Shown: positions 11,313 to 59,746, counted from the stretch's first letter. The stretch is 64,000 nt of DNA from Candidatus Marinacidobacterales bacterium (GCA_965224085.1 CBDCYI010000009.1:32001-96000), one strand, 5' to 3'. Made by a program: numbers and translations. Notes: a model not told the origin generated them from the letters alone.

Positions 11313-11332
11313 TCTCCTCCGATCGAATCCAG

Positions 11333-11368: not shown

Positions 11369-11406
11369 GCTCGGATCCTCACAAGCATCGCTTCAGTTCT
11401 AAGAGG

Positions 11407-12945: not shown

Positions 12946-12951
12946 GCCGCG

Positions 12952-14031: not shown

Positions 14032-14087
14032 GAAATCCTCCTTGAGTTCAAAACAGGGATGTTCGATCGATGGACGCATTAGGGCCC

Positions 14088-15871: not shown

Positions 15872-15946
15872 TGGTGTTGTCCACCTTCCACAAAAAGGTC
15901 GGGACCCCCCAAGTCAAAGTCAAAGAGTGTATCAGCCTCATAGCGT

Positions 15947-17117: not shown

Positions 17118-17324
17118 CACTCTGTGTTCTTGGAAACATAGGCATAAATGCCATAGCGAAGGTCCGAAATGAGGGTACTGCGATGATCCGCCGACTCTTC
17201 CCCGTTCGCAGGGATGACGTGGCTGCGTTTGTTTTCGGTGCTCGCTCGGGCTTTGTGCGAAGGTTCGTGGAACGCGCCCATGTGGCCGTTCCCTATCACC
17301 GTTCATAACGGAGGACAAGAAAAA

Positions 17325-20243: not shown

Positions 20244-20257
20244 GTCGTTCATAGAGT

Positions 20258-20300
20258 AGCGCGCTGATGCAGGCACCGCGTCAGCGCGCTCTTTTTCTTT
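20258..20300 (+). terminator. Intrinsic terminator after the TBDR
   Basis: 13-bp stem AGCGCGCTGATGC/GCGTCAGCGCGCT (one G-U pair), 7-nt loop, then CTTTTTCTTT. Confidence 0.85.
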
Positions 20301-20370
20301 CTCAGGCTCATCCATCCCGCTAACGAGTACTCCCCATAACGCCTGTGGGCGTGGGTGTCGAGGAGGGGTC

Positions 20371-21972
20371 GTGAAAACTTCAAGAATGAGGAAAAGATTC
20401 GCCATTAGCTTCACCTTTCTGTCCGGTCTCGTTATTCTCGGCAGCATCGGCGTCCAGGCGCTGCAGGCGCCCGCTCCCTCGGTTTTCGATCAGGTATCGG
20501 TCGAGCAACTCGTCCAGGGGCCGCAGGGGCCTCCCTACGTGCCGCAGGGACCGATTGCGATTGTAGGGGGTTTGCTCATCGATGCCACCGACGCCCCGCC
20601 GCGGCACGATCAAACGGTTCTGATCGACGGCGAGCGGATCGTCGAGGTAGGACCGATGGAGGACGTACGCATCCCGAGCGAAGCACGCGTCATCGACGCT
20701 CGGGAGATGACGATCATGCCTGGGCTCATCGATTCGAACCAGCATTTCGTCTTGAACCCGCTGTTCTCGACGCCGGATGTGAGTTTTTCATACGAGGACT
20801 TCAAGGCGCGCTGGGAGCACAACTGGGCGCAGATGGAGTACGTTGCCTTCGTGTACTTGATGCAGGGCGTCACCGGGTTTCGGCAAACTCCCGGTCCGGC
20901 GGATCGGCAGCTGGAGGTCATTCGGAGAATTGACAAGGGCGAGATTCCGGGTCCCAGGATATATCTGGGTGGATCGTTGTGGATGAGCAAAGCGCACTGG
21001 GACCGTCATCTGAAGCAGAACAGTCAAATGGATCCTAAGGCGATTGAGTTCATCAAGCATCAGTTCGAATATAACGTGATAGAGGATATGAACAATCTGG
21101 ATCCGAATGGTTGGGGGCAGGAAGGCCCGGACTTCAACTTCTGGAAGCTCTACATGTGGCGTGAGCCCTTTGACGGGGAGAATGATTTCACCGACGAAGA
21201 GTTGAGGCAGATCATCGAGCGCGGGCACGAGCTCGGGAAGATCATCGACGTTCACGCCGGCGGCCATAACAACGGCCTCAGACGGATGCTTGCATTCGAC
21301 GTGGATACCCTGGAGCACCCCTTTTACGGAAATGAGCTGATTGACTGGGACATCATCGAGGGCTACGTAAAAAAAGGGGTCATCATCGACACCTTGCTCG
21401 AAGTGATGATCCAAAAGATCGAGCTGGCGGCGGACCCTCATCGGTTTGACGAGACGCTGTACTCGATGTCGCTTTACGGGCACGGCACGCGTCCCGCACC
21501 CTTCGAGCATCGTCTCCTGATGCAGTATCGCGACAAGCTGCTCTACAACAAGCGCCATCCCGACAAGCCGGGACTGACGGTTTACCCGCCAGATTCGACC
21601 GAGACTGGGCGTTCGTACAATGACCAGATGAAAGCCATGGAAACCTCCAAAGAAAACATGCGCCGTTTTATCAAGGCCGGTGCCAAGTTTTGGATGGGAA
21701 CCGATACCGGCGCGTTCATGACCATGCGACAAGAAGATCCCTACGCGCGGGAGATGGCTTATATGGTGGAGATGGGGATGACGCCGGTGCAAGCGATCCA
21801 GGCGGCGACCCGCAACGGGGCGGAAGGCCTTGGCCTGCTGGACGAGCTCGGCACGATCGAGGAGGGCAAACTGGCCGACGTGATCGTGGTGGCTGGAAAT
21901 CCGTTGCAGGATATGAAGGGTGCCATGAAGCGCGTCTATGCAGTCATCAAAGGCGGCGTCCGCTACAAATAG
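20371..21972 (+). CDS. Exported amidohydrolase family protein, paralog 1
   Basis: Signal peptide, TIMPGLIDSNQH, FWKLY, DVHAG, TLEHP, MGTDTG, GTIEEGKLADVIVV. Confidence 0.9.
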   Translation: MKTSRMRKRFAISFTFLSGLVILGSIGVQALQAPAPSVFDQVSVEQLVQGPQGPPYVPQGPIAIVGGLLIDATDAPPRHDQTVLIDGERIVEVGPMEDVRIPSEARVIDAREMTIMPGLIDSNQHFVLNPLFSTPDVSFSYEDFKARWEHNWAQMEYVAFVYLMQGVTGFRQTPGPADRQLEVIRRIDKGEIPGPRIYLGGSLWMSKAHWDRHLKQNSQMDPKAIEFIKHQFEYNVIEDMNNLDPNGWGQEGPDFNFWKLYMWREPFDGENDFTDEELRQIIERGHELGKIIDVHAGGHNNGLRRMLAFDVDTLEHPFYGNELIDWDIIEGYVKKGVIIDTLLEVMIQKIELAADPHRFDETLYSMSLYGHGTRPAPFEHRLLMQYRDKLLYNKRHPDKPGLTVYPPDSTETGRSYNDQMKAMETSKENMRRFIKAGAKFWMGTDTGAFMTMRQEDPYAREMAYMVEMGMTPVQAIQAATRNGAEGLGLLDELGTIEEGKLADVIVVAGNPLQDMKGAMKRVYAVIKGGVRYK

Positions 21973-22018
21973 ACTCTCGCTTACAAGATAGCAAATTCTG
22001 TCTGGCGAGGTTCGATCG

Positions 22019-23608
22019 ATGAAAATGAACAAGAGCAGTTTCACCGCGGGTTTCGCTGCACTCGGTGGCTTGGCCATGATCGTCGGTTTGGCTGTGACCA
22101 GAGTGGGGGCGCTTCAGGCGCCCGCCCCTTCGGTTCTCGATCGGGTTTCTGTCGAGCAGCTGACTCAGGGGCCGCAGGGGCCTCCCTACGTGCCGCAGGG
22201 ACCGATTGCAATTGTAGGCGGTCTGCTCATCGACGCCACCGGCGCTCAGCCGCGGCACGACCAGACGGTTCTGATCGACGGCGAGCGGATCGTCGAGGTG
22301 GGACCGATGGAAGAAGTGCCTATCCCGAGGGGAGCGCGCGTCATCGACGCCCGGGGGATGACGATCATGCCGGGGCTCAGCGATTCCAATCAACATGTGG
22401 TGCTGAACCCGTTGCTCTCAACGCCGGACGTGAGCCTATCATATGAGGATTTCAAGGCGCGGTGGGAGCGCAACTGGGCCCAGATGGAGCGGAATGCGTT
22501 CACCTACTTGATGCAAGGGATAACAAACTTCCGGCAGACTCCGGGCCCGGCGGACTTGGAGCTTGCGCTGAAGCGACGGATCGAGAAGGGGGAGATACCG
22601 GGGCCGCGCGTATTTCTGGGTGGCTCGTTGTGGATGAGCAAGGCGCACTGGGAGCGTCACCTGAAGATGAACAATCAAACCGATCCTAAGGCGATCGAGT
22701 TCATCAAGCATCAGTTCGAGTACAACGTGATCGAGGATTTGAACGATCTCGACCCGAACGGCTGGGGACAGGAAGGCCCGGACTTCAACTTTTGGAAGCT
22801 TTACATGTGGGGCGAGCCCTATGACGGGAAGAACGATTTTACCGACGAGGAGCTCGAGTACATTATCAAGCGCGGGCACGAGCTCGGGAAGATCATCGAC
22901 GTCCACGCCGGCGGAGGTGGCAATGCTGGCTTGAGGAGGATGCTGGCCTTCGACGTCGACACGCTGGAACATCCTTTTGAGCGCTATGAAATCGTTGACT
23001 GGGACATCATCGAAGGGTACGTCAAGAAGGGAGTTATCATCGATACCTTGTTGGAGGTCAAGGTCCAAAAGGTCGAGTTAGCGGCGGATCCCCACCGGTT
23101 CGACGAGACGCTCTACACGATGTCGCTCCATCCTTCCGAGCATCGCATCTTGATGCGGTACCGGGACAAGATGCTGTTCAATCAACGACATCCCGACCAA
23201 CCCGCTTTGAGGCCCTACCCCGCGGCATCGACGCGCCAGACGGACCGCTCCTACAACGAGCAGATGAAAGTGATCGAGACGGCGAAGGAGAACATGCGCC
23301 GGTTCATCAAAGCGGGCGCGAAGTTCTGGATGGGGACGGATACCGGCGCTTTCATGACCCTGCGTCAGGAAGATTCCTACGCCCGGGAGATGGCACATAT
23401 GGTGGAGATGGGGATGACGCCCATGCAGGCTATCCAGGCGGCGACCCGCAACGGAGCGGAAGGTCTGGGCATGCTGGACCAACTGGGCACGATCGAGGAG
23501 GGCAAACTGGCGGACGTGATCGTGGTGGCCGGCAACCCCCTCGAGGATATGGAAGGCGCCATGAAGCGGGTCTATGCCGTCATCATGGGAGGCGTCCGCT
23601 ACAAATAG
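22019..23608 (+). CDS. Exported amidohydrolase family protein, paralog 2
   Basis: Colinear with paralog 1 and highly similar after the signal peptide; TIMPGLSDSNQH and the same downstream motifs. Confidence 0.9.
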   Translation: MKMNKSSFTAGFAALGGLAMIVGLAVTRVGALQAPAPSVLDRVSVEQLTQGPQGPPYVPQGPIAIVGGLLIDATGAQPRHDQTVLIDGERIVEVGPMEEVPIPRGARVIDARGMTIMPGLSDSNQHVVLNPLLSTPDVSLSYEDFKARWERNWAQMERNAFTYLMQGITNFRQTPGPADLELALKRRIEKGEIPGPRVFLGGSLWMSKAHWERHLKMNNQTDPKAIEFIKHQFEYNVIEDLNDLDPNGWGQEGPDFNFWKLYMWGEPYDGKNDFTDEELEYIIKRGHELGKIIDVHAGGGGNAGLRRMLAFDVDTLEHPFERYEIVDWDIIEGYVKKGVIIDTLLEVKVQKVELAADPHRFDETLYTMSLHPSEHRILMRYRDKMLFNQRHPDQPALRPYPAASTRQTDRSYNEQMKVIETAKENMRRFIKAGAKFWMGTDTGAFMTLRQEDSYAREMAHMVEMGMTPMQAIQAATRNGAEGLGMLDQLGTIEEGKLADVIVVAGNPLEDMEGAMKRVYAVIMGGVRYK

Positions 23609-45953: not shown

Positions 45954-46200
45954 TTATTTCGTCGGTACCAGTCGTTCGAGCTCATGGAACCAGTTGAGCA
46001 CGAATTCCAGCTCGAGGGTGGCGAAATCGATGCCTCTTTTCGGTGATGGCGCGGGCCTTTCCTTGAAGATCGACTCTGACGAGGTGCGATCGAGTCCGCG
46101 TGCGCTTTGTCTTGCATAGACCAAGGAGCCGTCGCTCGCGACCGTGAACTGAGGCGCACCGCCTTCCTCTATGCAGATGGTGCCGACGTCCTGAGGTTCG
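45954..46200 (-). pseudogene. Second, internally deleted kinase-PD40 remnant
   Basis: GGAPQFTVASDGSLVY (mid-propeller motif; compare GVAFFTFSDTGTLVY) joined within ~30 aa to LEFVLNWFHELERLVPTK*. Confidence 0.65.
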
Positions 46201-46213
46201 TCACCTAAGGTTC

Positions 46214-46266
46214 GAGTGTGCAACTTTCAACCGGTGAAAATGGGCCGTTTTAGACTGGCGTTGACA
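46214..46266. mobile_element. Isolated IS21-family-like terminal sequence
   Basis: Minus strand TGTCAACGCCAGTCTAAAACGGCCCATTTTCACCGGTTGAAAGTTGCACACT: a TGT tip plus two internal AAA...CACT/CATT repeats. No istA/istB. Confidence 0.6.
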
Positions 46267-46396
46267 CTCCTCCGTGATCAGCTTCTCTGGCACGGCGAGG
46301 CTGACCAGGAGCGTCGCCAACGGATTCTTGCGACGCTGCGGCATGTAAATCGAACGAGCACTCGGGCAGCCACCTAACACGCCGATGAACCGGACG
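46267..46396 (+). other. 3' end of a probable integron gene cassette with the 5' half of an attC site
   Basis: A 36-codon open frame ends at TAA 46375-46377 inside ACCTAAC (RYYYAAC), followed by ACGCCGATGAACCGGACG. The complementary half ending GTTRRRY is missing. Confidence 0.5.
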
Positions 46397-46541
46397 TGGT
46401 CTTTCTCTTCGTGTGACGATTGGGTACCAGGCGATCTCAAAGGGATGTTCGGTGCGTCAGCAACTCGGTGAAACGCAGGTGCACGAACCGTTGCAACCGG
46501 TCGACGGCGTACTCATGTAGCGGTGTCGCATGCTGGTCCGG

Positions 46542-48131
46542 CTAGAAGCCAGCCGCTTCACCATCGCTGCGTGGATCGGACGCGCCTTCCAGAAGACCGG
46601 ACGGATGGTGCACCACGGCGCCGGCATGACCCATCAACTCGTCGTACGGGCCCACGACTTCGATGTCGTGACCAGCGTCGCGAAGCCGATCGATGAGATC
46701 TATTTCGAAACGACTCTCCATCCTCAGACGGGTGATTTCGGTTCCCCAGGTCCGCCCCAGCAGCCAGCGCGGTGCGGTGATCGCTGCTTGCAACTCCTGG
46801 CCGTAGAGCACGTGACGAGTGAACACTACCGCTTGCGTCTGAGGCTGGCCGTCACCACCCATAGTGCCGAACACCAGGGTACGCCCGTCGTTCAGCAGCG
46901 CGAGTGGAGGTTGAATGGTGTGAAACGGCCGGCGGCGCGGTTTGAGCTCATTCAGCGAGTGCTTGTCCAGCGCAAAACTGCAGCCGCGGTTCTGCCAGGT
47001 GATGCCGGTATCCGGCAACACCACCCCCGAACCGAACTCCCAGTAGAGGCTCTGGATCATGCTGACCGCCCGACCAGTGGCATCGATTGCGCCCAGCCAA
47101 ACCGTATCGCCCGCCGTCGCGGGATGGGGCCAGGGTGCCGCTCGCTCGCGATCGATGTCGGCCGCCATGGCATCGAGTGCCTGCTCGGTGAGGAATTCGG
47201 CCGGGTCCCGAGGCATGTAATCCGGATCCGTGACCTCTGCATCCCGCACCCGGATTGCCTGTTTGGTGGCCTCGACCAGACTGTGAACGAAATCGAAGCT
47301 CTCCACCTTGCTGACACCTAACCGATCGAACACCCCCAGCAGTATCAGCGACGCCAGTCCTTGGGTGGGGGGTGGCAGATTGAAAATCCGGCCGCAGTCG
47401 AGCGCCAAACAAAGCGGCAAGACGTCACGGCAACGGTAGCGTTTGAGGTCTTCGTGCCCGAGCGGGCTTCTGGCTGCCTGCAAGCCGGCCCCGATGCGGC
47501 GAGCCAGCTCGCCGCGGTAGAAATCATCCAGACCGTTGCGCACCAGCAGTTTCAGGGTTTCCGCAAGTGCGAGGTTCCTGAACAGCTCACCGGCAACCGG
47601 GATCCGTCCGCTCGGCATGTACAGGTCGTGGAACCCGACCGTATCCGCCATCTGATTGTGCTTTGCTGCGGTGCAACTGCTTTGACTGGCCGATACGGCA
47701 AAACCGTGTTCCGCGTAGAACACGGCATCTTCGAGCAGGCGGGCAAGTGGCAGACGGCCACCCCAGGTCCTGCCGACTTCGAAGGCGCGCTGCCAGCCGG
47801 AAACCGCGCCCGCTACCGTGAGGGCGGCACCGGGACCACGCGCCGGTATCGCCGCATCGCCGTGGTCGAGATAGTAGCGGGTATCGGCGGCATCGGCAGC
47901 GCCTCCGCAGGCATCGATACCAGCCGGCTCACTGCCGGGGGCATGGAACAGCCAGAAGTTGTCACCGCCCAGACCGTTCATGTGCGGGTACACGACGGCG
48001 ATAGTACTGCATGCTGCCAGCATTGCTTCGATGGCATTGCCACCTTCGGCCAGCACGCGTTGCCCCGCGCGCGCGGCGAGGTAGTGCGGCGCCGTTACCA
48101 TGCCCTGGTAGGCACGTCGGGTCTGCAGCAT
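46542..48131 (-). CDS. hpxW: Gamma-glutamyltransferase-family Ntn hydrolase, oxamate amidohydrolase (HpxW)-like
   Basis: ATG at 48131; GMVTAPHYLA, IAVVYPHMNGLGGDNFWL, PPTQGLASL, GDTVWLG (Thr nucleophile), IQSLYWEFGSG, GTMGGDGQPQTQ, PRWLLGRTWG. Confidence 0.82.
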   Translation of the reverse strand: MLQTRRAYQGMVTAPHYLAARAGQRVLAEGGNAIEAMLAACSTIAVVYPHMNGLGGDNFWLFHAPGSEPAGIDACGGAADAADTRYYLDHGDAAIPARGPGAALTVAGAVSGWQRAFEVGRTWGGRLPLARLLEDAVFYAEHGFAVSASQSSCTAAKHNQMADTVGFHDLYMPSGRIPVAGELFRNLALAETLKLLVRNGLDDFYRGELARRIGAGLQAARSPLGHEDLKRYRCRDVLPLCLALDCGRIFNLPPPTQGLASLILLGVFDRLGVSKVESFDFVHSLVEATKQAIRVRDAEVTDPDYMPRDPAEFLTEQALDAMAADIDRERAAPWPHPATAGDTVWLGAIDATGRAVSMIQSLYWEFGSGVVLPDTGITWQNRGCSFALDKHSLNELKPRRRPFHTIQPPLALLNDGRTLVFGTMGGDGQPQTQAVVFTRHVLYGQELQAAITAPRWLLGRTWGTEITRLRMESRFEIDLIDRLRDAGHDIEVVGPYDELMGHAGAVVHHPSGLLEGASDPRSDGEAAGF

Positions 48132-48349
48132 TGAGGCCGTTTTCGAATACTCAGCGGACGATTCCGCTCCTGCAACTGCAATTGTGAATGCGCCAGGCCG
48201 CCGACGCAAGCCGTCTCACTCCCGCGACACGTGATTCATACGCGACGCATCCGCCGCCGTGAAGGCTATGTGCGTCGCTGTTGCGTGGCACGATGCGCCT
48301 GGTAACGTCACTGGACAGTATCGCGCGGATTGTGGTGGGATCGTTTGCT

Positions 48350-49606
48350 ATGGATGACATGACGAGCAGTCGGACCCCCGCCCTTTTCGACGCTCTGGAC
48401 CCGCCACCAAGACTGCTGATGGGTCCGGGTCCGGTCGACGTCTATCCGCCGGTATTGCGTGCCATGGCAACACCCATGCTGGGTCAGTTCGACCCACAGT
48501 TTACCGCCTACATGAACGAGGTCATGGTGTTGTACCGGCAGGTGTTTCGTACCGACAATCAGTGGACGCTTTTGGTCGACGGCACGGCCAGAGCCGGTAT
48601 CGAAGCCTGTCTGGCATCCCTGATCACGCCGGGGGATACGGTGCTGGTGCCGGTGTTCGGGCGTTTCGGGCACTTGCTGATGGAGATCGCGGCGCGCTAT
48701 GACGCGCGCGTCGAATCGATCGAAACCGAGTGGGGGAGCGTGTTCGAGCCCGACCAGATCGCCGACGCGGTGCGTCGACATCGGCCCAACGTACTGGCGA
48801 TGGTTCATGGTGACACCTCGACGACCATGGCGCAGCCGCTCGCCGAAATCGGGGCGTATTGTCATGACGCGGATGTCGTGGTTTACGTTGACGCCACGGC
48901 GACGCTCGGTGGCAATCCGCTGGAAGTCGATGCGTGGCAGCTCGATGCGGTGACCGCCGGATTGCAGAAATGCATGTCAGGCCCCCCGGGTTCTGCGCCG
49001 GTCACTTTCAATGAACGCGTGGCGGACGTCGTCAATACGCGTAAACACATCGAACTCGGCATTCGCCCGCAAGGAGCCCGGGACGCTGCAGGGGCCCGTA
49101 TACGCTCGAACTATTTCGACCTGCCGATGCTGATGGACTACTGGTCGCCGACACGCCTGAATCACCACACCGAGGCGACCAGCATGCTCTACGCAGCGCG
49201 CGAGTGCGCCCGCGTAGTATTGGCCGAGGGTCTGGAGCAGGGGTTTCAGAGACACGCCGTTACCGGTCGCGCGTTGCGTGCCGGTCTCGAGGCCATGGAC
49301 CTGCAACTATACGGCGACCCGGGTGCGCGGATGGCGAACGTGACCGGCGTAGTGATTCCAGATGGCATCGACGGTGATCGGCTGCGAACCGAAATGCTGG
49401 AGGATTTCGGTATCGAGATCGGCACCTCGTTCGGCCCGTTGCACGGCAAGATCTGGCGGATCGGTACGATGGGTCACGTGTGTCGCCGAACGAGCGTATT
49501 GCGCTGTCTTACTGCACTGGAAGCCGTGCTCCGTCGGCAGCACTATACTTCGAGCCCTGGTGCGGCGGTGGATGCCGCCTACGCCGCCTACGAACAGCCG
49601 AGCTGA
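48350..49606 (+). CDS. pucG: (S)-ureidoglycine-glyoxylate aminotransferase (PucG/HpxJ-like, PLP class V)
   Basis: RLLMGPGP, LGQFDP, DGTARAGIEA, HGDTSTTMAQPL, AGLQKC, SNYFDL, RLNHHTEATSMLY, EIGTSFGPLHGKIWRIGTMG. The start could also be 48359. Confidence 0.88.
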   Translation: MDDMTSSRTPALFDALDPPPRLLMGPGPVDVYPPVLRAMATPMLGQFDPQFTAYMNEVMVLYRQVFRTDNQWTLLVDGTARAGIEACLASLITPGDTVLVPVFGRFGHLLMEIAARYDARVESIETEWGSVFEPDQIADAVRRHRPNVLAMVHGDTSTTMAQPLAEIGAYCHDADVVVYVDATATLGGNPLEVDAWQLDAVTAGLQKCMSGPPGSAPVTFNERVADVVNTRKHIELGIRPQGARDAAGARIRSNYFDLPMLMDYWSPTRLNHHTEATSMLYAARECARVVLAEGLEQGFQRHAVTGRALRAGLEAMDLQLYGDPGARMANVTGVVIPDGIDGDRLRTEMLEDFGIEIGTSFGPLHGKIWRIGTMGHVCRRTSVLRCLTALEAVLRRQHYTSSPGAAVDAAYAAYEQPS

Positions 49607-49618
49607 GCCGTCGCGCCC

Positions 49619-51064
49619 ATGTCGAAACCGCCAGATCGTAAACGCCTCGATCAGGTAACCGGCGTCATCAACGTGGGTCTCGAAGCGTTCGCCAGTGACC
49701 TGTCAGAGCTCGGTGTCGATGTGGTGCACGTGGACTGGGCTCCGCCCGCTGGTGGCGATCCGGAGCTGGCGTCGCTGCTCGGGAAGCTCGATGACGTGTC
49801 GGCGAGCGGCCTGAGTTCGCGCGTCGAGACGGCCAATCGGGAGGCATTGCAGCGCATCCTCGCTTCCGACCCGGTGCTGATCGATGTCGTGCCGGCGACT
49901 GAATGCATTGCCGGGCTGGGGCCGCAAATGATCCTGCATGCCGGCCCGCCAATCGACTGGCAGCGTATGTGCGGGCCGATGCGGGGTGCGGTGGCCGGGG
50001 TCGCGGTTTTCGAGGGCTGGGCGGAGGACCTGGCCGCGGCGGACCGCATGGCGGCGCGCGGTGCTTTCGACTTTCAGCCCAACCATCACTTTGCCGCCGT
50101 TGGACCGATGACCGGTCTGACCACGATGTCCCAGCCAGTGATGGTTGTAGAGAACCGTGCGTTCGGCAACCGTGCGTATTGCACGATCAACGAAGGCCTG
50201 GGAAAAGTCATGCGCTTCGGTGGCAACGACGCGGATGTCCTCAGCCGGCTCGCGTGGCTGCGTGACGTGCTCGGTCCGGTGTTGGGCGATGCTTTGCGTG
50301 ACATGGGGGGCGTCCCAGTCAAGAACCTGGTGGCCCGCGGTCTCGGGATGGGTGATGAGATGCACCAGCGAAACGTTGCCTGCACGGGACTGCTGTTGCG
50401 AGCATTGGCGCCCGCGCTGGCGCGGCGTTGTAACGATAGCGAAACGCTCGCGCAAGCACTGACGTTCATCGCTGGCAACGACCAGTTCTTCCTCAATATC
50501 GCGATGGTGCTCAGCAAGGCGATGATGGATCCGGTGCGCGGTATCGAGGCGAGCACGGTGGTGACCGCCATGTCCAGAAACGGTACCGATTTTGGCATCC
50601 GAGTGAGTGGCACCGGCGATGAGTGGTTCACAGCACCCGTGGAGATGCCGCAGGGCCTGTACTTCCCGGGGTTCAGCGAGGTCGACGCCAACCCGGACAT
50701 GGGTGATTCGACGATCGTCGAGACCGTCGGGCTTGGCGGATTTGCGATGGGCGCAGCGCCAGCGGTGGCAGGGTTCGTAGGGGCCGGACAAGCATCCGAA
50801 GCGGCGCTCGTCACACACCGTATGCGAGAGATCACCGTCGGTGGGAACCCCGAGTGGACGATACCCGCGCTTGACTACCTGGGCGTACCAACCGGCATCG
50901 ATATTCGCCGCGTCGTCGCGAGGCGCATCGCCCCGACCATAAACACCGGCATTGCGCACCGCGAACCCGGGGTAGGGCAGGTCGGCGCCGGGGTTGTCGA
51001 AGCACCGCTCGGCTGCTTTGAGCAGGCGTTGCGTGCCTTCGCGGCGAGGATGGGTATCCGATGA
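49619..51064 (+). CDS. DUF1116 protein (YahG/YlbE-AllG family) with YahG-type N-terminal extension
   Basis: VINVGL...DWAPPAGG extension, then ILHAGPP, MGDEMHQRN, MSRNGTDFGIRVSG, NPDMGDSTIVETVG, INTGIAH. Confidence 0.88.
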   Translation: MSKPPDRKRLDQVTGVINVGLEAFASDLSELGVDVVHVDWAPPAGGDPELASLLGKLDDVSASGLSSRVETANREALQRILASDPVLIDVVPATECIAGLGPQMILHAGPPIDWQRMCGPMRGAVAGVAVFEGWAEDLAAADRMAARGAFDFQPNHHFAAVGPMTGLTTMSQPVMVVENRAFGNRAYCTINEGLGKVMRFGGNDADVLSRLAWLRDVLGPVLGDALRDMGGVPVKNLVARGLGMGDEMHQRNVACTGLLLRALAPALARRCNDSETLAQALTFIAGNDQFFLNIAMVLSKAMMDPVRGIEASTVVTAMSRNGTDFGIRVSGTGDEWFTAPVEMPQGLYFPGFSEVDANPDMGDSTIVETVGLGGFAMGAAPAVAGFVGAGQASEAALVTHRMREITVGGNPEWTIPALDYLGVPTGIDIRRVVARRIAPTINTGIAHREPGVGQVGAGVVEAPLGCFEQALRAFAARMGIR

Positions 51065-51654
51065 GCATATCCCTGCACCGAGTACGGAGCGGTTTTTTTC
51101 TCGACTCGGTCGCCCTCATGCGCATCTCGCGAGCCGTGGCCGACAGCGACGGTGTCGATGACGCCGCACTGATGATGGGTTCGCCAACCAATCAACGACT
51201 CATGCTCGATGCGGGACTCCTGAGTGGTGACGGAATCGACGCGAGTGGTGGTGATCTGGTGATAGCGGTTCGCGCGCGCTCAAGGGCTGCGGCGGAACAG
51301 GCGCTCGAAGCGGCCGAGTACGCGCTTGATGCGGAACGCGGTTCGCGCGGCCAGCAGAAGACTGGCGGCTTTCGACCGCGCGACCTGCGCGGTGCCTCGC
51401 AGGTGCTGCCGGCTGCCAACCTGGTGTTGATTTCGGTGCCGGGTTTGTACGCCGCTTTCGAAGCGCAGAAGGCACTCGCAAGCGGCCGGCATGTGATGAT
51501 CTTCAGCGACAACGTGGCGCTGGCCGATGAGGTGGCGCTCAAACGCCAGGCGCGGGATCTCGGCTTGCTGGTGATGGGGCCGGACTGCGGCACCGCCATC
51601 ATCGATGGCGTGCCGCTGGCGTTCGCGTGTATCGGTAGCCGGGGAGGCGGCTAG
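51061..51654 (+). pseudogene. fdrA: FdrA/YahF (AllF) family protein, truncated to 197 aa
   Basis: FFLDSVALM, LISVPGLYA, MIFSDNV, LLVMGPDCGTAII. It stops 8 residues after PLAFA, whereas family members are ~500 aa. Confidence 0.8.
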
Positions 51655-51656
51655 CT

Positions 51657-52619
51657 ATGGTGTTCCCGATCCCTGATCGTCTGCTGGTCGCGATCGGCGG
51701 CAACGCGACTCACCCCGAGGACATCGAAGGGACCGGAAACGAGCAGAAGGCGATAGCGGCTCGTACCGCGACTTCGCTGCTGCCGCTGTTGCTTTCGGAC
51801 AACGAGTTGATCATCACGCACGGCAACGGTCCGGTGGTTGGCAAGATACTCATGCGCCAGGCGCTTACGCGCGATCGCATCGCGCCGATGCCGCTCGATA
51901 TCTGCGTCGCCCACAGCCAGGGCGGTATCGCTTACCTGCTCGTGCAGGCACTGGAGAGCGCGCTGCGCAGGGCGGGCAATGAGCGCCATGTCGCGTGCCT
52001 GCTTACCCAGGTCGAGGTCGACGGCGAGGACCCGGAGTTCTCACAGCCGACCAAACCGATCGGCCCGTTTTTCAGCGCGGCAGATGCCGCCGCCGTACAG
52101 GCCGAACTCGGCTGGTTGATGAAACCTGACGGCGCTCGTGGCTGGCGCCATGTTGTGCCGTCACCCGAACCGCTGCATATCTGTGACATTTCACTGGTCG
52201 AGGAGCTGGCGCAACGGGGTACGGCGGTGATCGCCGGTGGCGGTGGCGGTATTCCGGTCGTGCGCGCCCCCGATGGCGCGCGATGCGGTGTCGAAGCCGT
52301 CATCGACAAGGATCGGACATCAGCGCAAATGGCCAATATTCTGGGCATCGAGACGCTTCTGATCCTCACCGCGGTGGAGCGAGTGTCAGTGGATTTCGGC
52401 GGGCCCAACGAGCGCTCGCTCGATACCGTGAGTCTGCAAGAGATCCGCCGCCTGCGTGCCGAACATCAGTTTCCACCGGGCAGCATGGGTCCGAAGATCG
52501 ACGCCGCGATTCACTTCATTGAAGGTGGCGGCGAGCGGGCAGTTATCGGTCATCTGAATGCTGCGCTGAGCGCATTACGCGGCGAAGCCGGCACCCATAT
52601 CGTGCGAGACGATGCTTGA
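51657..52619 (+). CDS. arcC: Carbamate kinase
   Basis: VAIGGNA, THGNGPVVG, PTKPIGPF, RHVVPSPEP, GGGGIPV, EAVIDKD, GSMGPKI. Confidence 0.93.
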   Translation: MVFPIPDRLLVAIGGNATHPEDIEGTGNEQKAIAARTATSLLPLLLSDNELIITHGNGPVVGKILMRQALTRDRIAPMPLDICVAHSQGGIAYLLVQALESALRRAGNERHVACLLTQVEVDGEDPEFSQPTKPIGPFFSAADAAAVQAELGWLMKPDGARGWRHVVPSPEPLHICDISLVEELAQRGTAVIAGGGGGIPVVRAPDGARCGVEAVIDKDRTSAQMANILGIETLLILTAVERVSVDFGGPNERSLDTVSLQEIRRLRAEHQFPPGSMGPKIDAAIHFIEGGGERAVIGHLNAALSALRGEAGTHIVRDDA

Positions 52620-53544
52620 TTCTAGCCAGCGTCTGGCGATCCGTGCTATCGAAGTCGGTTGTATTGCGCAGCCGAGTCTGATGCAGGGCACCGAGTTTCG
52701 GGTGGCTTCGGTGTTCACGCGCAGTTGCTACCTGGTGTCCGTGACCGGCGACTGGATCTGCCTGCTGCCCGAGACGGCTACGGCCGACCCGCTGGGTATG
52801 CGGCTCCGCGTGTCTGGCGGTGTGGACTGGCACGCAAGCGGGGTGGCCGCCGGCATGCATTGCTGGTGCGGCGTATCGGCACTTCATGTCGGCGCGCGAC
52901 TGGCGATACACCTCAGTGATGCACCCACCTGGACTCCGCCGGCACCGCCGCCATGCAACAGGGTGTCGCTGATGCGGGGCTTGACGTGTCTCGATGCAAG
53001 CGCGATGACACGGGATGCCGGCGAGAAGCAGGGGTTGCTGTCGCTCGTCTACCCGGAAGCGGGGTATGCTGACCGTCTTGCTCACGCCGCGGACCCGACG
53101 GTCCGGGCATTACGCGCGTGGTTGAGGCAGTCGCTGCCGGCGGCGACGGTCATGGCTCCGCCTGCGCTCGACTCGCTGGTCGGACTCGGTCCGGGTCTCA
53201 CCCCATCAGGTGACGATTTCATCGGCGGCGTTCTGGCCACGTTGTATCAACTGGGCTACCAGCCGGTTGCCGAGCGGCTCTACGAGACCGCCGCGCCGCT
53301 CGCGGCGCAATCCGGCAATCCGATCAGCGCCGCCTACCTTGCCGCTGCTGCGCGCGGCGCGGCGAATGCTGACATTCATCGAGGATTGCACGCAGTGCTC
53401 GACGGTGACATGGACGAGATTGGCGAAGCGTTGCGGGCGATTGGCGGTATCGGGCACACGTCGGGATTCGATACGTTTGCCGGTGTCATCGTGACGCTGC
53501 GTTGCATAGCCGAATTCGAGTTCGGCGGGTGCCCAACCAGATGA
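52612..53544 (+). CDS. DUF2877 protein (YahE/YlbF-AllH family)
   Basis: LVGLGPGLTPSGDDFIGG, IGHTSGFD. Confidence 0.88.
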   Translation: MLDSSQRLAIRAIEVGCIAQPSLMQGTEFRVASVFTRSCYLVSVTGDWICLLPETATADPLGMRLRVSGGVDWHASGVAAGMHCWCGVSALHVGARLAIHLSDAPTWTPPAPPPCNRVSLMRGLTCLDASAMTRDAGEKQGLLSLVYPEAGYADRLAHAADPTVRALRAWLRQSLPAATVMAPPALDSLVGLGPGLTPSGDDFIGGVLATLYQLGYQPVAERLYETAAPLAAQSGNPISAAYLAAAARGAANADIHRGLHAVLDGDMDEIGEALRAIGGIGHTSGFDTFAGVIVTLRCIAEFEFGGCPTR

Positions 53545-53625
53545 ACGAACCAGGTCTTTTTACGGCCGATTACAGGAGTGAACCCGGTAGGGTCGAGGGC
53601 TGGCGCGGTACTCCGTAGGTGTGGC

Positions 53626-54135
53626 CTATAGTGCGCCGCGAATTCGTGTATAACCCCACTTCGGATTCGACTTCGCCATGGCCACGACGAGCTCGGTAAT
53701 CTCGACCATCACCCGGGGTCGTCCGAGCTGTTTCCACCGCTCCGCTTTCGTCCCACTTCCGCGCAATGAGCCTTCGGTGCCACGCCAAGAGAGTGTCCGC
53801 GGTGACGATACCAGCGACTTCGGCCAAGAGTTTCCGGCCAAGCTCCTTACCCTTTACCGCGAGCCGACGTCGCTCGTTATCGGTGAAGCGAAGTTTACTC
53901 CCGCGAAGCCGAGCTTTGAGGACTCTGTTCTCCTCGAGCAAGTAGACGATACCGGCCTGTTGGTCACGCTGGATCCAACCAGCCACGGCGACGACCAACA
54001 ACGTCCAGGGTTGGATCGGCGTGCTCATGACGGAGCATTCTAGCTTCCCTTGGCGAAGTAAGCGTTAGACGCGTCTATCCGAAACGCCCCGGCTGACGCG
54101 GGTCTTGAGTTCGTTCGTGTTTTTGGACAGGACGC
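53626..54135 (-). mobile_element. Degenerate IS remnant (integrase-core/rve-type transposase N-terminus) with its left end
   Basis: ATG at 54028: [10 protein letters not shown]...[10 protein letters not shown]...[16 protein letters not shown], frameshifting into GRPRV...[16 protein letters not shown]. The catalytic core is absent. Candidate end CGTCCTGTCCAAAAACAC (54134-54117). Confidence 0.75.
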
Positions 54136-54200
54136 GGACGATTCTTCCCGTTCAGTCCGCGTCGAGTGCTTGCCGCACCCAACGTACGGCCAACATTTTC

Positions 54201-57085
54201 TCAGTTGTCGGTGGGGACGAGGCGCTTCAGCTCCTGAAACCAGTTCTGGACGACCTGAAACTCAGGTGGCCCTTGGCTCTCGACCTGGATAAAGACGAAC
54301 CTCTTGCCGTCGGGAGCGAGATCGTACAGTCGGGGGAAGGCCGGGAGATGACGCAAATACCCCTCCTCGAAAAGCAATTGTGGTGGTCCCACAGACAGCT
54401 CAGGACGGGAGACTTGCACTCTCATCATCCCGTTCTCGGTCCGGTAGTAGAGTTCTGCCTGATCCGGCGACCACACCGGGGCACTCCCGCCGTCTGTCGA
54501 CACCTGCTGCCTTCCACCGGGCCGCTCGTAGGGCGTGATGTAGACCTGCCTCCGGCCCGATTCATTGGAGGTGTATGCCATCCAAAGCCCATCGGGTGAC
54601 AAGACCGGCTGGGCCTGCATTCCCCTAGGGTCGAGGACGGTCCGCGAGGTTCGGTCCGCTAAAGTTAGCTCAAAGATCCCCCAGTCTTGGTGGTGAGTGT
54701 CCGTGTAGAGAAGGCGCTCCCCATCCGCGGACAAGGCATCGGGAATCTGATGGCCAGCGCTCTCGGTCAGTCGTTCCGCAGGCCTGCTTCCGTCAACCGC
54801 TAAAGAGAAAAGGTTCACGTCCTGACCGGGAGCCGTGGCGCTGACCGCCAAGCTCTGGCCGTCCGGACTCCACGCAATACCTTCAAAAAAGAAGCCCTCG
54901 CCCGATGGACCGTCGAAGCTGGAAGCCACGAGGCTCAAACGCTCTTGCTCCAGCTCGTAGACATAAATCTCATGGGGTGTCGCGTCCGCCCCCACGGACA
55001 CGGCGAGACGACGGCCATCGGGTGAGAAGCGAGCTCGCCAGTAGGGCATCAGTGGAGCGGCGAGCGGAGCAGCCGTTCCTTGAAGATCCACGAGGACCAA
55101 ACGGGATATCGGGAAACGCCGGGCAAAGTAAACGAGCGTTCCGGTGTCGGAAAACGTGAAGAAGGCGACGCCGTTTCCGAGTGAGCGTACAGTGACGCCT
55201 GTCTGAACGGGAATTCCCGTGCCTCTCACCTCCATGCGGTCGAGATCGAACGGATGGCGTACAGAGTATCCTCTCTTGCGTAAATCAGGTGTCCTGTCGG
55301 TGCGTAGCGAGCGTAGCTCGCATTGAGCAAGAATCTACGCTCGCCGGTCTCCAAGGATTGCACCACGATGTTGGAGTCATCATGGTTTTGGCCGGTCACG
55401 GCGCAAAAGATGACGCCCTTTCCGTTGGGCAGTGCGTGCGGCCAGTAATGTAATCTTTCACCTTGATCGGGATTAATGCTCGCCAAGACTTCCGGCGTCC
55501 CTCCCGAGGCGGGAACTCTCATGAGGCCCGTCGTATAGTTGGCAAAGACGATCGTCCCGTCGACACTCCAATCGGCGCCCCGGTAATTAGGAGCATCGCA
55601 GAGGACGGCGGCCCCCGCTCCATCGAGACGCACTTTCTTGAGCTTCCCACCCGCGACGAATCCCACCCACTGGCCGTCCGGTGAGAAGAACGGGCCCTGA
55701 CCGCCCTCGGTTCCAGGAATCGGCGTCGACTCGTTCCGGTCGAGTTCTCTGAGGTAAAGTTGGAATCCCTGCCCTTCTATGAATACCCCGTACACCAGTT
55801 GAACGCCATCGGGCGAAAGTGCCGGAGGAAAATGGGTTACATACGTCTCCGCAGGCAGGTTGATGCTCGTTCGAAAGAGCGTCTGGTTTTCAGCGGGACC
55901 GGTGCGCCAGGAAGCCCACAAGGCAAGGCCAGCAAGAACGGCCATCAGCGCTACCAGAACCCAGGGCAGGACGGTCCTCGGGGAAGCAGCGGTCGCGCCA
56001 GCGGCCGGTACGCTTTGTGCTTCGTCCAGCTCGATACGCGCGTCGGCGATGTCATGGAGGCGCCGTCGAGGATCTTTCTGGAGGCATCGACGCAGCAAAC
56101 TTCGGGCAAGCAGCGGCACGTGCTCCGGCAATGCCCCCCAATCCGGCTCTCCTTCCAGGATCTTGGCAATGGTGTCCGAGACCGTCTCTCCAAGGAACGC
56201 AGTCTTGCCCGTCAGCGCTTCATACAAGCAGCATCCGAACGACCAAATGTCCGTGCGCTTGTCCAGAGTCTTGCCACGAGCCTGCTCGGGACTCATATAC
56301 GCGGGCGTTCCGAGAATGACTCCGGTCTCGGTTTCTTGCCGAGTGACGGTTGGTGACTCGGACTTCACGTCCTGAACGAATTCCCCCTTCGCCAAACCAA
56401 AGTCCAAGATTTTTGGGCTTCCTTCGGGTCCGATCTTGATATTGGCGGGCTTCAAGTCACGGTGGATCACACTCTTCTCGTGCGCGGCCTCGAGACCCGT
56501 GGCGATTTGTAAGAACAGCCGGAGAGCTTCGTCGATCGGTATCGGCCCTCGAGCGATTCGTTCCGCCAGCGTCTCGCCCTCGACGAGCTCCATGACGAGA
56601 AAGCGGATCCCGTCCGCGTCTTCGAGCCCGAAGAGGGTCGCGACATTGGGATGGTTCACCGAAGCAAGAAGCCGCGCCTCGCGCTTGAACCTCGCCAAGC
56701 GCTCCTTGTGCTGTGAGAACTCCTCGGGCAGGACCTTGATCGCGACGTCGCGCCCGAGCTTCCCGTCTCGTGCCCGATAAACCTCTCCCATGCCGCCTTT
56801 GCCGATTGGGGAGAGGATCTCGTAGGGGCCGAGGCGCGTTCCGGGGGCAAGTCCCATGCTATCTGTCTCGGTCCCTCTTTGTTTTAGGAGCGAGGAAACT
56901 GGAGCCTGAGCGAGAAAGCCGTTCGCTTCCGCCTCCTCATGGTTGGCCAAAAGCTCCTTGACCTGCTGTTGCAGCTCGTCCTGTTTGGGACAGGCTTTCT
57001 CCAAGAAAGCGCGCCGGTCCGCTGGGGCGAGCTCGAGCGCGGCTTCGAACAGGGCTGTGACACGCTCCCAAGAATCCGACTTCAA
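54201..57085 (-). pseudogene. Hanks-type Ser/Thr kinase with TM helix and PD40/TolB propeller, split by a -1 frameshift
   Basis: GKGGMGEVY, VAIK, HRDLKPAN, DFG, GTPAYMSPEQ. At ~55251 GCC ATC CG TTC GAT CTC restores TLYAI(P)FDLDRMEVRG if one base is added. Confidence 0.88.
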
Positions 57086-57674
57086 GAGACTTGCCTCTTA
57101 ACCTCACCGTAGAGCCAAGCTCGTGCGGCACGCCATTCCCTCTTGACCGTTCGGATGCTGGTGCCCATCAGCTCCGCGATCTCCTGCTGCTTCAGGCCTC
57201 CAAAGAATTGAAGCACCACGATCCGTTCCTGGCGGGGAGATCGCTTGCTCAAGCCGCAGAGCAGTTGAGAGCAAGAACGGTGTCCGATTGCTCGTTCAAC
57301 AGAATCGAAGCGTCGTCGAATGTGAAGTGCGGTCGGCCACCGCCGCGCTTTTCCGCTTTTCGCCGGCGGGCGTGGTCGACTAGGATCCGTCGCATGGGCT
57401 CGGACGCTGCCGCGAAAAAGTGAAGTCGGTTCCGCCAGGATTTGTCACGCTGCTCGACGAGCTTCTCGTAAGCCTCGTGCACCAGCGCCGTCGCCTGCAG
57501 CGTGTGGTCGCGAGGCTCGCGAGCCATGTAGTACCTAGCCAGACGACGTAGTTTCGGATAGACGGCCTCCATGAGCATCGACTCCGCGTTGGGATTCCCG
57601 TTGCTCCAGGCTTTGAGAAGTTGCGTAATCGTGCGCTGCTCGGGGTCCGCTGTGACGGATCTAGTGGGTGCCAA
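57082..57674 (-). pseudogene. Kinase-associated ECF sigma factor (TIGR02999/ECF43-like), frameshifted
   Basis: TLQATALVHEAY, FFAAA, MRRILVDHAR, KRGG. Region 4 (LSKRSPRQERIVVLQFFGGLKQQEIAELMGTSIRTVKREWRAARAWL) is in another frame after ~57255. Its stop overlaps the kinase TTG (TTGA). Confidence 0.88.
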
Positions 57675-57799
57675 CGCTAGCCCTCGCTGTTGGACTCATC
57701 CTACAGCACTCCGTAACTGAGCCGCAAACCCACCTTTATCTCCAACCGTGGCCCTTTGGGCAATTGGTCTGCGCGATTCAAGGCGGAGGGCAAAAAGCG

Positions 57800-58495
57800 A
57801 TGGAAAAACGAATTGGCCTTGATGGAACACACATCCCGGCAACATCGCTCGGTCAGATCCTGTTGATCGCGATAATGAGCGCCCTGGGTTGCCTCGGGCA
57901 AACGATCGCTCCAGGGGAAAGCGTACCCGCTTCAGCTACAGCCCAAAGCCTCATCGTTGTCTGGCACGACCCGGAGGGGTTGTTCCGTACGGGATCGGAA
58001 AGGCTCGCTCGACAGGTGAAGGACTTTTTTGCGGCCATCGCCGTAGAGACCGCCTGGGAGCAGGGAGAGACGAACCCGTCAGCCGACTCGAGTGCGGTAC
58101 AAGTGCGCGTCGTCCTCCGGCCTTCGGAGCCTTCGAGCTGGGGGTTGTCCAAAAACGTGTTGGGCGTCTGCTTTATTCGAACTTCTCCACCGGATGCGGC
58201 TTACATATTCTTCCCCGCCGTGGCGCGAACTTTGGGTTACCGGCCGCAAAACCTCGTCAAGTACGGATTGACTCCGCGACAAAGGGTGGCGATGGCCCGG
58301 GCCTTGAGCCGAGTGGTTGCCCACGAGGTTGTCCACGCCATTGCCCCGGGGCTGGACCACGCGCCCAATGGCTTGACCATGAATAGTCTCGACAGCGTCT
58401 GGCTCGGAAAGGGCACCAAGTCGCAAATCCACCCCCGCGCGGCGGCGGTTTTTCGGAGGGAACTGAGAAAATTGTCCTCACCGGCCGATCGATAG
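57800..58495 (+). CDS. Hypothetical exported protein with HExxH motif
   Basis: GGAGG before ATG 57800; hydrophobic segment with Cys; SRVVAHEVVHAI...HAPNGL. Confidence 0.65.
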   Translation: MEKRIGLDGTHIPATSLGQILLIAIMSALGCLGQTIAPGESVPASATAQSLIVVWHDPEGLFRTGSERLARQVKDFFAAIAVETAWEQGETNPSADSSAVQVRVVLRPSEPSSWGLSKNVLGVCFIRTSPPDAAYIFFPAVARTLGYRPQNLVKYGLTPRQRVAMARALSRVVAHEVVHAIAPGLDHAPNGLTMNSLDSVWLGKGTKSQIHPRAAAVFRRELRKLSSPADR

Positions 58496-58531
58496 GGGCA
58501 CACCAGAACCCCTGGCGGCCAGGCCAGCCTC

Positions 58532-58568
58532 ATAACGCTTGCCGTTATATAACGAGTGACGTTATAAT
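58532..58568 (+). promoter_or_regulatory. higBA promoter with two tandem operators
   Basis: TTGCCG-N18-TATAAT (58539-58568); ATAACG-N5-CGTTAT at 58532-58548 and 58549-58565. Confidence 0.8.
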
Positions 58569-58574
58569 TTCTGT

Positions 58575-58859
58575 GTGATCAAATCCTTTCGAGATCGCGA
58601 CACCGAGAGGATATGGCTCGGAGAGTCGTCGAAGCGCCTGCCGCCGGATATTCAGCGGCCTGCGAGACGAAAGCTTAGAATGCTGAACAACGCGCGTGAT
58701 TTGACGGATCTGCGTGTTCCGCCGGCGAACCGGTTGGAACGTCTCGAGGGCCGGCGCCGCGGTCAGCGCAGTATCCGAATCAACGATCAGTGGCGAGTCT
58801 GCTTTCGTTGGTCGCGCGGCGACTCCTACGACGTCGAGATCGTCGACTACCATCGGTGA
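58575..58859 (+). CDS. higB: HigB toxin (RelE superfamily)
   Basis: MIKSF, ARRKL, DLRVPPANRLERL, SIRINDQWRVCFRW, VEIVDYH. Confidence 0.93.
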   Translation: MIKSFRDRDTERIWLGESSKRLPPDIQRPARRKLRMLNNARDLTDLRVPPANRLERLEGRRRGQRSIRINDQWRVCFRWSRGDSYDVEIVDYHR

Positions 58860-58869
58860 GGAGAGTGAT

Positions 58870-59175
58870 ATGGCAAAGAAACTGCCCAACGTTCATCCGG
58901 GCGAGGTACTCCTGGAAGAGTTCCTCGAGCCCCTCGACATGAGCCAAAACCGCCTGGCGCGAGAAATCGGGGTTCCACCTCGACGGATCAACGAGATCGT
59001 CTTGGGCAAGCGCTCGGTGACACCCGATACGGCGCTGAGACTATCGCGCTATTTCGGGACTTCGAGTCGTTTCTGGCTGGGGCTTCAGATGGACTACGAC
59101 TTGGAAGAGACCGAAAGAGAAAAGTCCGCAGAGATCGAGCGCGAGGTACGACCTCGAGAGAAAGTTGGTACTTGA
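58870..59175 (+). CDS. higA: HigA antitoxin
   Basis: RBS GAGGAG, ATG at 58870; HPGEVLLEEFL, RRINEIVLGKRSVTPDTALRL, FWLGLQMDYDL. Confidence 0.93.
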   Translation: MAKKLPNVHPGEVLLEEFLEPLDMSQNRLAREIGVPPRRINEIVLGKRSVTPDTALRLSRYFGTSSRFWLGLQMDYDLEETEREKSAEIEREVRPREKVGT

Positions 59176-59200
59176 CCGCATCGCTGAACGGAGGCGAGAG

Positions 59201-59491
59201 TCATGGAGCCTGTCCGCCTTCACCCTCCGGGCTACGACGCGGCAGGCCGATACGCTGCCCTTCCCGTCGCCTCGACTCCTCGAGTCCCTTTCGGATTCCG
59301 GCGGTCGCCTCCAGGCGGTCCACGAGCTCCAAAAGCTTCTGATACGAACCCGCGTCCTGGACGACGAGCTCGGCCCGACCATTGATAGTCAGGACAATCG
59401 GATCACCGCTCTGCTTGAGCTGGCGCACAAGCCCGGTCGTGTTCCGCTTGAAATCGGTGAGGGGATGGATGTCCTTAGTAATGTCCAGCTT
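59201..59491 (-). pseudogene. Orphan Phd/YefM antitoxin lacking a canonical start; 3' end disrupted
   Basis: LDITKDIHPLTDFKRNT...PIVLTINGRAELVVQDAGSYQKLL. The RBS GGAGG is followed by CTAAG-CTG rather than ATG. No toxin gene follows. Confidence 0.7.
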
Positions 59492-59746
59492 AGCCTCCGC
59501 ATCAAATTCGCATCTTTTGTAATGCTAACCTGCGAGGCCCTTGAATGCAAGCGAGGACGTTGTCCGGCAAGCCAAAAACGTAAGACTGGTCGCGCAGGCG
59601 TCTGTGAGGATAGCGTCGTTGTCCGAGCTCCGGTCAAGCCGACGGCGCACCCAGAGCGGCCTCGCACCCAAATCGGGAGCCGCTGGGTTTTTGGGCCACC
59701 ACTCGATGCGTAGATTAGTGCCGCCGGGCCGGCCCTCCTCCGCCGT

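Follow-up and report, generated by a model that had tools for sequence, protein, structure and literature searches.

Hybrid gene cluster for ureide breakdown in Candidatus Marinacidobacterales, predicted to join HPX entry and exit steps to ALL phosphorolysis across two loci

Oxalurate and oxamate are handled by different sets of enzymes in different bacteria. PucG of Bacillus subtilis is said to have been described by Ramazzina et al. in 2010, the Klebsiella oxamate amidohydrolase HpxW reportedly by Hicks and Ealick in 2016, and HpxY was reportedly named oxalurate amidohydrolase by Huynh and Stewart in 2023. PucG and HpxJ are aminotransferases that form oxalurate and glycine from ureidoglycine and glyoxylate, to judge by the titles of the Protein Data Bank entries 3NNK and 3ISL. 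HpxW hydrolyses oxamate (cited in PMC5270733, in excerpt), and the Klebsiella enzyme has been solved as 5HFT (PMC12360370, in excerpt). AllFGH was identified in 2024, in Escherichia coli only, as oxamate carbamoyltransferase (EC 2.1.3.5), an enzyme for which three genes are needed and whose operon also holds allK, the product of which gives ATP (PMC11326118, in excerpt). The same excerpt gives oxalurate phosphorolysis by the purified three-subunit protein for E. coli only, describes oxamate as a dead end there, and reports K. pneumoniae to be without allFGHK. Here we describe a six-gene cluster that brings together hpxW-, pucG- and all-type genes at positions 46542-53544 of a stretch of 64,000 nucleotides (hereafter the window) from a Candidatus Marinacidobacterales bacterium (GCA_965224085.1, CBDCYI010000009.1:32001-96000), together with a partial duplicate of the cluster on another contig of the same genome, C4.

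The six open reading frames (ORFs) lie exactly as an initial annotation of the window had placed them, with one hpxW-like gene divergent from a five-gene operon. The hpxW-like gene, a candidate for oxamate amidohydrolase of the gamma-glutamyltransferase (GGT) or N-terminal nucleophile (Ntn) hydrolase family, is on the minus strand at 46542-48209, and a divergent intergenic region of 71 bp (48210-48280) separates it from the plus-strand genes. These are a candidate pucG/hpxJ-like (S)-ureidoglycine-glyoxylate aminotransferase gene (48281-49606), allG of the DUF1116 family for a subunit of oxamate carbamoyltransferase (49619-51064), a remnant of allF (fdrA) of 197 residues (51061-51654), an allK-like carbamate kinase gene (51657-52619) and allH of the DUF2877 family for a further subunit (52612-53544). 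By their ORF coordinates the five are tightly packed, with a 12-nucleotide gap, a 4-nucleotide overlap, a 2-nucleotide gap and an 8-nucleotide overlap in turn, and they thus fit one operon. On the strength of sequence comparisons, we think it probable that this cluster is a member of a widespread, conserved catabolic operon joining the entry and exit of the HPX pathway to the phosphorolysis of the ALL pathway, and that in this genome it is split between two loci. The PucG/HpxJ-like enzyme would use glyoxylate as acceptor for the amino group of (S)-ureidoglycine, yielding oxalurate and glycine; AllF, AllG and AllH would convert oxalurate and phosphate into oxamate and carbamoyl phosphate; carbamate kinase would use carbamoyl phosphate to form ATP, ammonia and CO2; and the HpxW-like Ntn-hydrolase would release oxalate and ammonia from oxamate. 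Where allC is present in the operon the input would be allantoate, and in the window's genome the route would work only with trans-complementation between the window locus and C4.

Like the ALL cluster of E. coli, the window cluster has the FdrA, DUF1116 and DUF2877 subunit families adjoining carbamate kinase, and the same phosphorolysis of oxalurate with formation of ATP is predicted. The E. coli pathway is entered through AllE and AllD, whereas entry here would be through a PucG/HpxJ-type transaminase; the gene order is allF-allG-allH-allK in E. coli and allG-allF-allK-allH in clusters of the window type, in which a tail of AllF, about 50 residues long, sits on the N-terminus of AllG. Also different are the HpxW-type gene of the window cluster and its allF, which is a remnant; in E. 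coli, metabolism does not go beyond oxamate (PMC11326118, in excerpt). As for the HPX pathway of Klebsiella, HpxJ (3NNK) and HpxW (5HFT) are the closest solved relatives of the first and last window proteins of the route. The middle step in Klebsiella is the hydrolytic oxalurate amidohydrolase HpxY (PMC12625717, in excerpt), whereas here it would be taken by phosphorolytic AllFGH and a kinase, so that each oxalurate could yield one ATP. An allFGHK module joined to another upstream module is likewise found outside the enterobacteria, in comammox Nitrospira and ammonia-oxidising archaea, but there it lies with the biuret and triuret genes biuH/trtA/atzF, upstream purine genes are absent, and no pucG or hpxW partner is described in that source (PMC12625717, 2025, in excerpt).

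Comparison with all solved structures places the aminotransferase nearest to PucG/HpxJ and the GGT-like protein nearest to HpxW, the types to which the initial annotation had assigned them. The hpxW-like ORF has 555 residues when read from a TTG, and an ATG at codon 27, 26 codons in, gives a form of 529 residues, which is the length of most members of its protein cluster and the form chosen by most gene calls. Its product scores 400 bits on PF01019, and its best solved matches are 5HFT_A (301.6 bits) and 5HFT_B (263.8), followed by 2NLZ (251.7) and 2I3O (212.2), while it stays under the gamma-glutamyltransferase equivalog TIGR00066 (318.6 vs 357.85). T369 is aligned with residue 1, also a threonine, of the small chain of 5HFT, that is, with the site of autoprocessing; threonine at this position is presumably the nucleophile, as in GGT-fold Ntn hydrolases in general. 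The genome has one copy of the HpxW type, that in the window, and the remaining GGTs are at most 35% identical to it. The pucG-like protein is a class-V aminotransferase (PF00266) that aligns over its full length to HpxJ (3NNK, 549.5 bits) and to Bacillus subtilis PucG (3ISL, 471.8 bits), including by eye the QKC lysine motif, and the next solved structure reaches 278.6 bits; as for PucG, formation of oxalurate and glycine from ureidoglycine is predicted. It passes no NCBIfam equivalog, its top score being 190 bits, on a model with an unrelated name whose cut-off is 600. AllG scores 298.7 bits on PF06545 (cut-off 27) and matches 3CLQ with 392.6 bits starting at residue 64. Carbamate kinase passes NF009007 (310 bits, cut-off 266) and misses the TIGR00746 equivalog (327 vs 358), and AllH matches PF11392 at residues 189-295 with 81.1 bits (cut-off 25). 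The kinase and allH each have a single tblastn match in the genome, in both cases the window gene.

The gene that the initial annotation had taken as a whole, fdrA-like allF is a remnant from which residues 190-494 have been deleted in frame. Its 197-residue product matches NF004760 (FdrA, 555 positions) at 6-194 only, with 184 bits against a cut-off of 433, and no Pfam domain was found in it. Residues 1-189 of a 502-residue gene are joined in frame to its last 8 residues and stop codon, and the 915 bp (305 codons) between them are gone, together with the region coding for the CoA_binding and Ligase_CoA domains; the junction lies after position 51627, at an imperfect microhomology of 13 nucleotides. 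A whole-genome search found a second locus on contig C4 with pucG, allG and an allF of 502 residues. This allF scores 469.5 bits on the FdrA model, has PF02629 at 196-275 and PF00549 at 341-492, and is the one intact copy in the genome. The duplicated segment corresponds to window positions 48265-51657 (plus strand) and lies on C4 in opposite orientation (G000:C4, about 1182414-1186721); its left border, 48265, falls inside the intergenic region between hpxW and pucG. Within 48265-51627, 3362 of 3363 bases are equal, with an identical tail of 30 bp in addition, and pucG and allG are present on C4 as second, identical copies. The duplicate stops 4 nucleotides past the stop codon of allF and is followed by an insertion sequence (IS) transposase gene with a DDE_Tnp_1 domain (locus L007, 7538-8239). 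Beside the C4 pucG there is also a remnant of the 3' end of hpxW, the last 475 bp, 98.7% identical to window positions 46524-46997 (minus strand); the tblastn match there is limited to HpxW residues 405-547, and the remainder of the gene is absent, as are the kinase and allH. Because only the window holds allK, allH and a full HpxW-type GGT gene and only C4 an intact allF, the full set exists only across the two loci, and the window operon alone, with its allF remnant, cannot encode a complete AllFGH.

A GGT of 570 residues encoded beside the C4 copy might have stood in for HpxW; this was rejected, since it belongs to a separate family and is not among the HpxW tblastn matches above 100 bits. 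This family has 8 members, on C4, C5 and C11, the 7 further copies being 61-68% identical, and three of the paralogues stand in tandem on C5 (e.g., C5:2025320-2030659).

A single difference in 3363 bases between the two copies is unusual for true paralogous loci, and the assembly is in 12 contigs; both would fit a different explanation, namely that assembly produced both the deletion in allF and the near-identical second copy as artefacts, and that the true genome has one intact cluster. We regard this explanation as very improbable. At the junction the reading frame is kept across a microhomology and no contig ends, and the flanks of the two copies are different and unrelated. The window flanks are syntenic with those of a congener (G003), and thus the window locus is taken as the ancestral site and the C4 copy as derived. 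In a protein collection the exact 197-residue remnant is encoded on 4 contigs, the longest of 8.70 Mb, and the exact full-length AllF on 3. Logan contigs bear on the same question. In three runs from three studies, the contig with pucG, allG and the 5' part of allF stops at 51627 (X18, X20) or 51597 (X17), the next contig begins at 51627/51628, and further breaks are found at 46997 and 48268-48297. The ends and starts at the junction look like a branching of the assembly graph there, the further breaks mark the borders of the duplicated parts, and one run has the joint from 46997 to 48268 as in the C4 form. On the other side, none among the listed Logan contigs spans the junction at 51627 by 31 letters on both sides, and this very assembly may have been made from some of the Logan data sets, which are thus not fully independent. 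The breaks therefore support the deletion indirectly and give no direct verdict for or against the junction. Logan depth figures, which are not copy numbers, were left unused, and runs with under half of the words were left unused for claims on habitat.

AllG is found in 8 of 61 related genomes, the window's own genome counted. Both allG-bearing congeners (G002 and G003) have hpxW divergent from pucG, allG, a 502-residue allF, the carbamate kinase gene and allH, with proteins 94-98% identical to those of the window. All six genes are intact in G002, which is likewise titled Candidatus Marinacidobacterales bacterium, and transposase genes lie on both sides of its cluster. The region between hpxW and pucG, which in the window would measure up to about 218 bp if internal ATGs start both genes, is about 311 bp longer in G003 and holds an insert of 2.8 kb in G002 (locus L024, 5824-8650), where pieces of PAS-domain and histidine-kinase genes are spread across several ORFs. 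No sigma-70-like site was found in this region of the window, and a promoter and terminator scan of 46000-54200 was uninformative, with 0 promoter-like sites and 4 terminator-like sites where 4.3 are expected.

Outside the genus there are many AllG relatives at about 70% identity. By tblastn with the six proteins we examined the best 80 loci among 550 relatives in species-representative genomes. Of these 80 loci, 53 have enough flank; nearly all of the 80 are from Alphaproteobacteria, with Granulosicoccaceae and some Betaproteobacteria in addition. All six genes occur in 13 of the 80 loci, one of them a congener (13 of the 53 with enough flank). Taken singly, allF accompanies allG in 66 (48 of 53), allH in 52 (40 of 53), the carbamate kinase gene in 48 (42 of 53), pucG in 29 (22 of 53) and hpxW in 27 (26 of 53). 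The co-location proposed from the window is thus present in other genomes, both allG-bearing congeners included, and the arrangement is not unique to this one but common among Alphaproteobacteria of sea and soil. In the proteobacterial loci hpxW is mostly found directly 3' of allH on the same strand, and nine of the 80 have seven genes in one order on one strand, allC-pucG-allG-allF-allK-allH-hpxW (AllC counted at at least 50% identity). An AllC-like, that is, allantoate-amidohydrolase-like, gene lies at most 600 bp upstream on the same strand in 14 of the 29 pucG loci, and in all five loci that were scanned this upstream gene reaches 522-549 bits on NF006775, the equivalog for allantoate amidohydrolase, above its cut-off of 479. 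This gene fits an entry through ureidoglycine, and since the alphaproteobacterial operon usually begins with it, the real input there would be allantoate. The allG of acidobacteria of the same order (L019-L021, L023), about 40% identical, is not accompanied by any of the other five genes in its vicinity at E<1e-8.

The counts also bear on another possibility, in which the substrate of the operon, oxalurate or another ureido compound, has a source other than ureidoglycine (for instance, oxalurate derived from parabanate or imported), and the aminotransferase serves a different pair of amino and oxo acids, for example in detoxification of glyoxylate to glycine. The absence of pucG from 51 of the 80 allG loci and of a linked allantoate amidohydrolase from the genus would suit it, as would an old report that, by its title, ties parabanic acid to the induction of oxamate transcarbamylase. 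There is moreover a sister form of the operon (locus L026, 8755-9984 and 6098-8758) in which allC and pucG are replaced: a cytosine-deaminase/AtzC-like amidohydrolase gene stands directly upstream of allG in 11 of 79 proteobacterial loci, and a Liv/Urt-type ATP-binding cassette (ABC) transporter is nearby in 16 of the 79, hpxW being often retained. However, with the two characterised ureidoglycine aminotransferases the aminotransferase of the window gives 549 and 472 bits, whereas no other solved class-V enzyme gets beyond about half of this, and its gene directly follows the allantoate-amidohydrolase-like gene in 14 of 29 loci, so we consider a different source for the operon as a whole to be quite unlikely. 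As for the amidohydrolase of the sister form, its top solved relatives are 1K6W and 2QT3, at about 170 bits, and one might guess that its substrate is a cyclic ureide opening to oxalurate, such as parabanate.

The ureidoglycine route being retained as the preferred reading of the operon, the position of AllG among its relatives suggests how this operon came to the genus. A quick maximum-likelihood tree of AllG was built with 63 rows, after 23 of 86 candidates had been dropped for a best match of at most 380 query residues or a stop inside, and it was rooted on the 40%-identical AllG of same-order acidobacteria, used as outgroup only. The window sequence forms one clade with those of G002 and G003 (SH-aLRT 100), which is nested in a clade of 41 rows (SH-aLRT 97) whose remaining rows come from 34 Alphaproteobacteria, 3 Granulosicoccaceae and 1 member of Flavobacteriia. 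This topology suggests that the cluster was acquired from Proteobacteria; the direction of transfer is likely and not proven, because the outgroup branch is very long.

Several points weigh against a working route in this genome, beside the unspanned junction mentioned above. The window allF is non-functional by any reasonable reading, and in E. coli a strain without allF forms no oxamate, allGH alone giving back 16% of the wild-type amount (PMC11326118, in excerpt). No allantoate amidohydrolase above the equivalog cut-off was found in this genome, which is 95% complete, or in its four congeners; the best candidates are two distant amidases, 34% identical to the enzyme of the proteobacterial operon, which pass only the subfamily model NF006771, and candidates of this kind occur in the congeners whether or not they carry the cluster. 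Searches of the genome found no OHCU (2-oxo-4-hydroxy-4-carboxy-5-ureidoimidazoline) decarboxylase, HIU (5-hydroxyisourate) hydrolase or ureidoglycine aminohydrolase (AllE), and no xanthine dehydrogenase (XdhB), allantoinase, PuuE or AllD above cut-off. At the far end of the route, no oxalyl-CoA decarboxylase is above cut-off in the genome (best 196 bits vs 739), while a formyl-CoA transferase (G000:C4:1529141-1530379) passes its equivalog cut-off (683 bits vs 504). Among the congeners, allG was not found in two of the other four, which are 93-94% complete, and in G003 the hpxW product is shortened to 486 residues and pucG is in two frames, all of them signs of erosion in the genus. What the analysis shows is the identity of the genes, the deletion, the duplication and how far the cluster is conserved; every enzymatic step, the trans-complementation and the source of ureidoglycine are inferred. 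With no evident ureidoglycine source, the genome's own capacity is doubtful, and the pathway is probably impaired or eroding here.

These same points can be taken further, into the view that the cluster is a horizontally acquired relic under loss, in which the pathway has stopped working and those ORFs that are still intact have simply yet to decay. The deleted allF, the reduction of hpxW to a remnant beside the C4 copy, the IS elements flanking that copy and the G002 cluster, the missing allantoate amidohydrolase and urate-to-allantoin genes, the state of the congeners and the nesting of AllG among proteobacterial sequences would all agree with it. A PuuE-like gene, of the polysaccharide-deacetylase type of allantoinase, is moreover broken into three frames with TAG and TGA stops (G000:C4:1411594-1412454) and is a possible pseudogene. 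Nevertheless hpxW, pucG (twice), allG (twice), allK, allH and one allF are all open and of full length, and the two loci together retain the complete set, in what we describe as exactly one working copy of every gene. All six genes are intact in G002, most listed members of the 90% cluster of allF have 502 residues, and an error of sequencing may explain the frame break in G003. We therefore rate a decaying relic as somewhat unlikely.

The comparison of AllF and AllG brought out a further difference from the E. coli proteins. Residues 8-57 of AllG match positions 505-554 of NF004760, which correspond to the C-terminal end, about 50 residues long, of E. coli-type AllF, and residues 430-473 of 3DMY match AllG residues 14-57. 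The AllF partner of this AllG subfamily has 502 residues and ends at about model position 493. The AllF-tail-like segment is located at 49619-49810 of the window (AllG residues 1-63), and likewise in the C4 copy of allG (locus L007, 9922-11367). A segment of AllF thus appears to have moved to AllG in this subfamily, and an AllF tail encoded at the N-terminus of AllG, in the gene order allG-allF, argues for physical contact between the two proteins.

As to novelty, the initial annotation had proposed one linked route and an unrecognised combination that might be a new system. The linked route stands as a reading of the widespread operon and fails for the window operon alone, where the allF remnant blocks a complete AllFGH. 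No report was found of pucG in one operon with allFGH, allK and hpxW, and a literature search for which most subscription journals and supplements were outside the scope gave no description of such a cluster or route, so that the combination is probably undescribed in print; it is nonetheless a recombination of known modules and not a new system. The nearest reports are those on E. coli and the 2025 one on nitrifiers. In its widest form, the proposal would be that an undescribed operon, common among marine and soil-dwelling Alphaproteobacteria and in Granulosicoccaceae and passed to this acidobacterial genus, takes allantoate to oxalate, recovering all of its four nitrogens, three of them in ammonia and the fourth in glycine, and gaining one ATP through substrate-level phosphorylation, in that the transaminase and oxamate-hydrolase steps of HPX are fused to the oxamate carbamoyltransferase of ALL, and that the sister form would point to a second source of oxalurate; here we see the chances as evenly balanced. 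If true, many environmental bacteria would have a complete, energy-conserving removal of all allantoate nitrogen, HpxW- and PucG-type enzymes would have a defined pathway as partner in organisms other than Klebsiella and Bacillus, and oxalate and glycine would be predictable by-products of ureide use. For annotation, clusters of DUF1116, DUF2877 and FdrA would be seen to carry interchangeable entry and exit modules, and a call of "pathway present" from gene content would, for this genome, mask the deleted allF.

The rest of the window holds several units apart from the cluster. Two tandem IS transposase ORFs of 454 residues with identical Pfam scores (DUF772 and DDE_Tnp_1) are found at 5320-6684 and 7010-8374 on the minus strand. 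They are followed at 8523-16927, also on the minus strand, by genes for a GntR regulator, a tripartite ATP-independent periplasmic (TRAP) transporter (DctP, DctQ, DctM), a DUF1028 protein, an AstE/AspA-like deacylase and a short-chain dehydrogenase/reductase (SDR), which together look like a unit for the uptake and catabolism of some acid. On the plus strand, 17214-23608 encodes an outer-membrane beta-barrel protein with a CarboxypepD_reg domain and then two tandem paralogous amidohydrolases of about 530 residues, and a similar amidohydrolase of 524 residues is encoded near the C4 duplicate (locus L007, 1251-2825). Downstream of the cluster, 54135-59607, which includes genes for a PD40 beta-propeller protein and a Ser/Thr kinase, has no counterpart at the syntenic site of G003, a difference that reflects either an insertion here or a deletion in G003.

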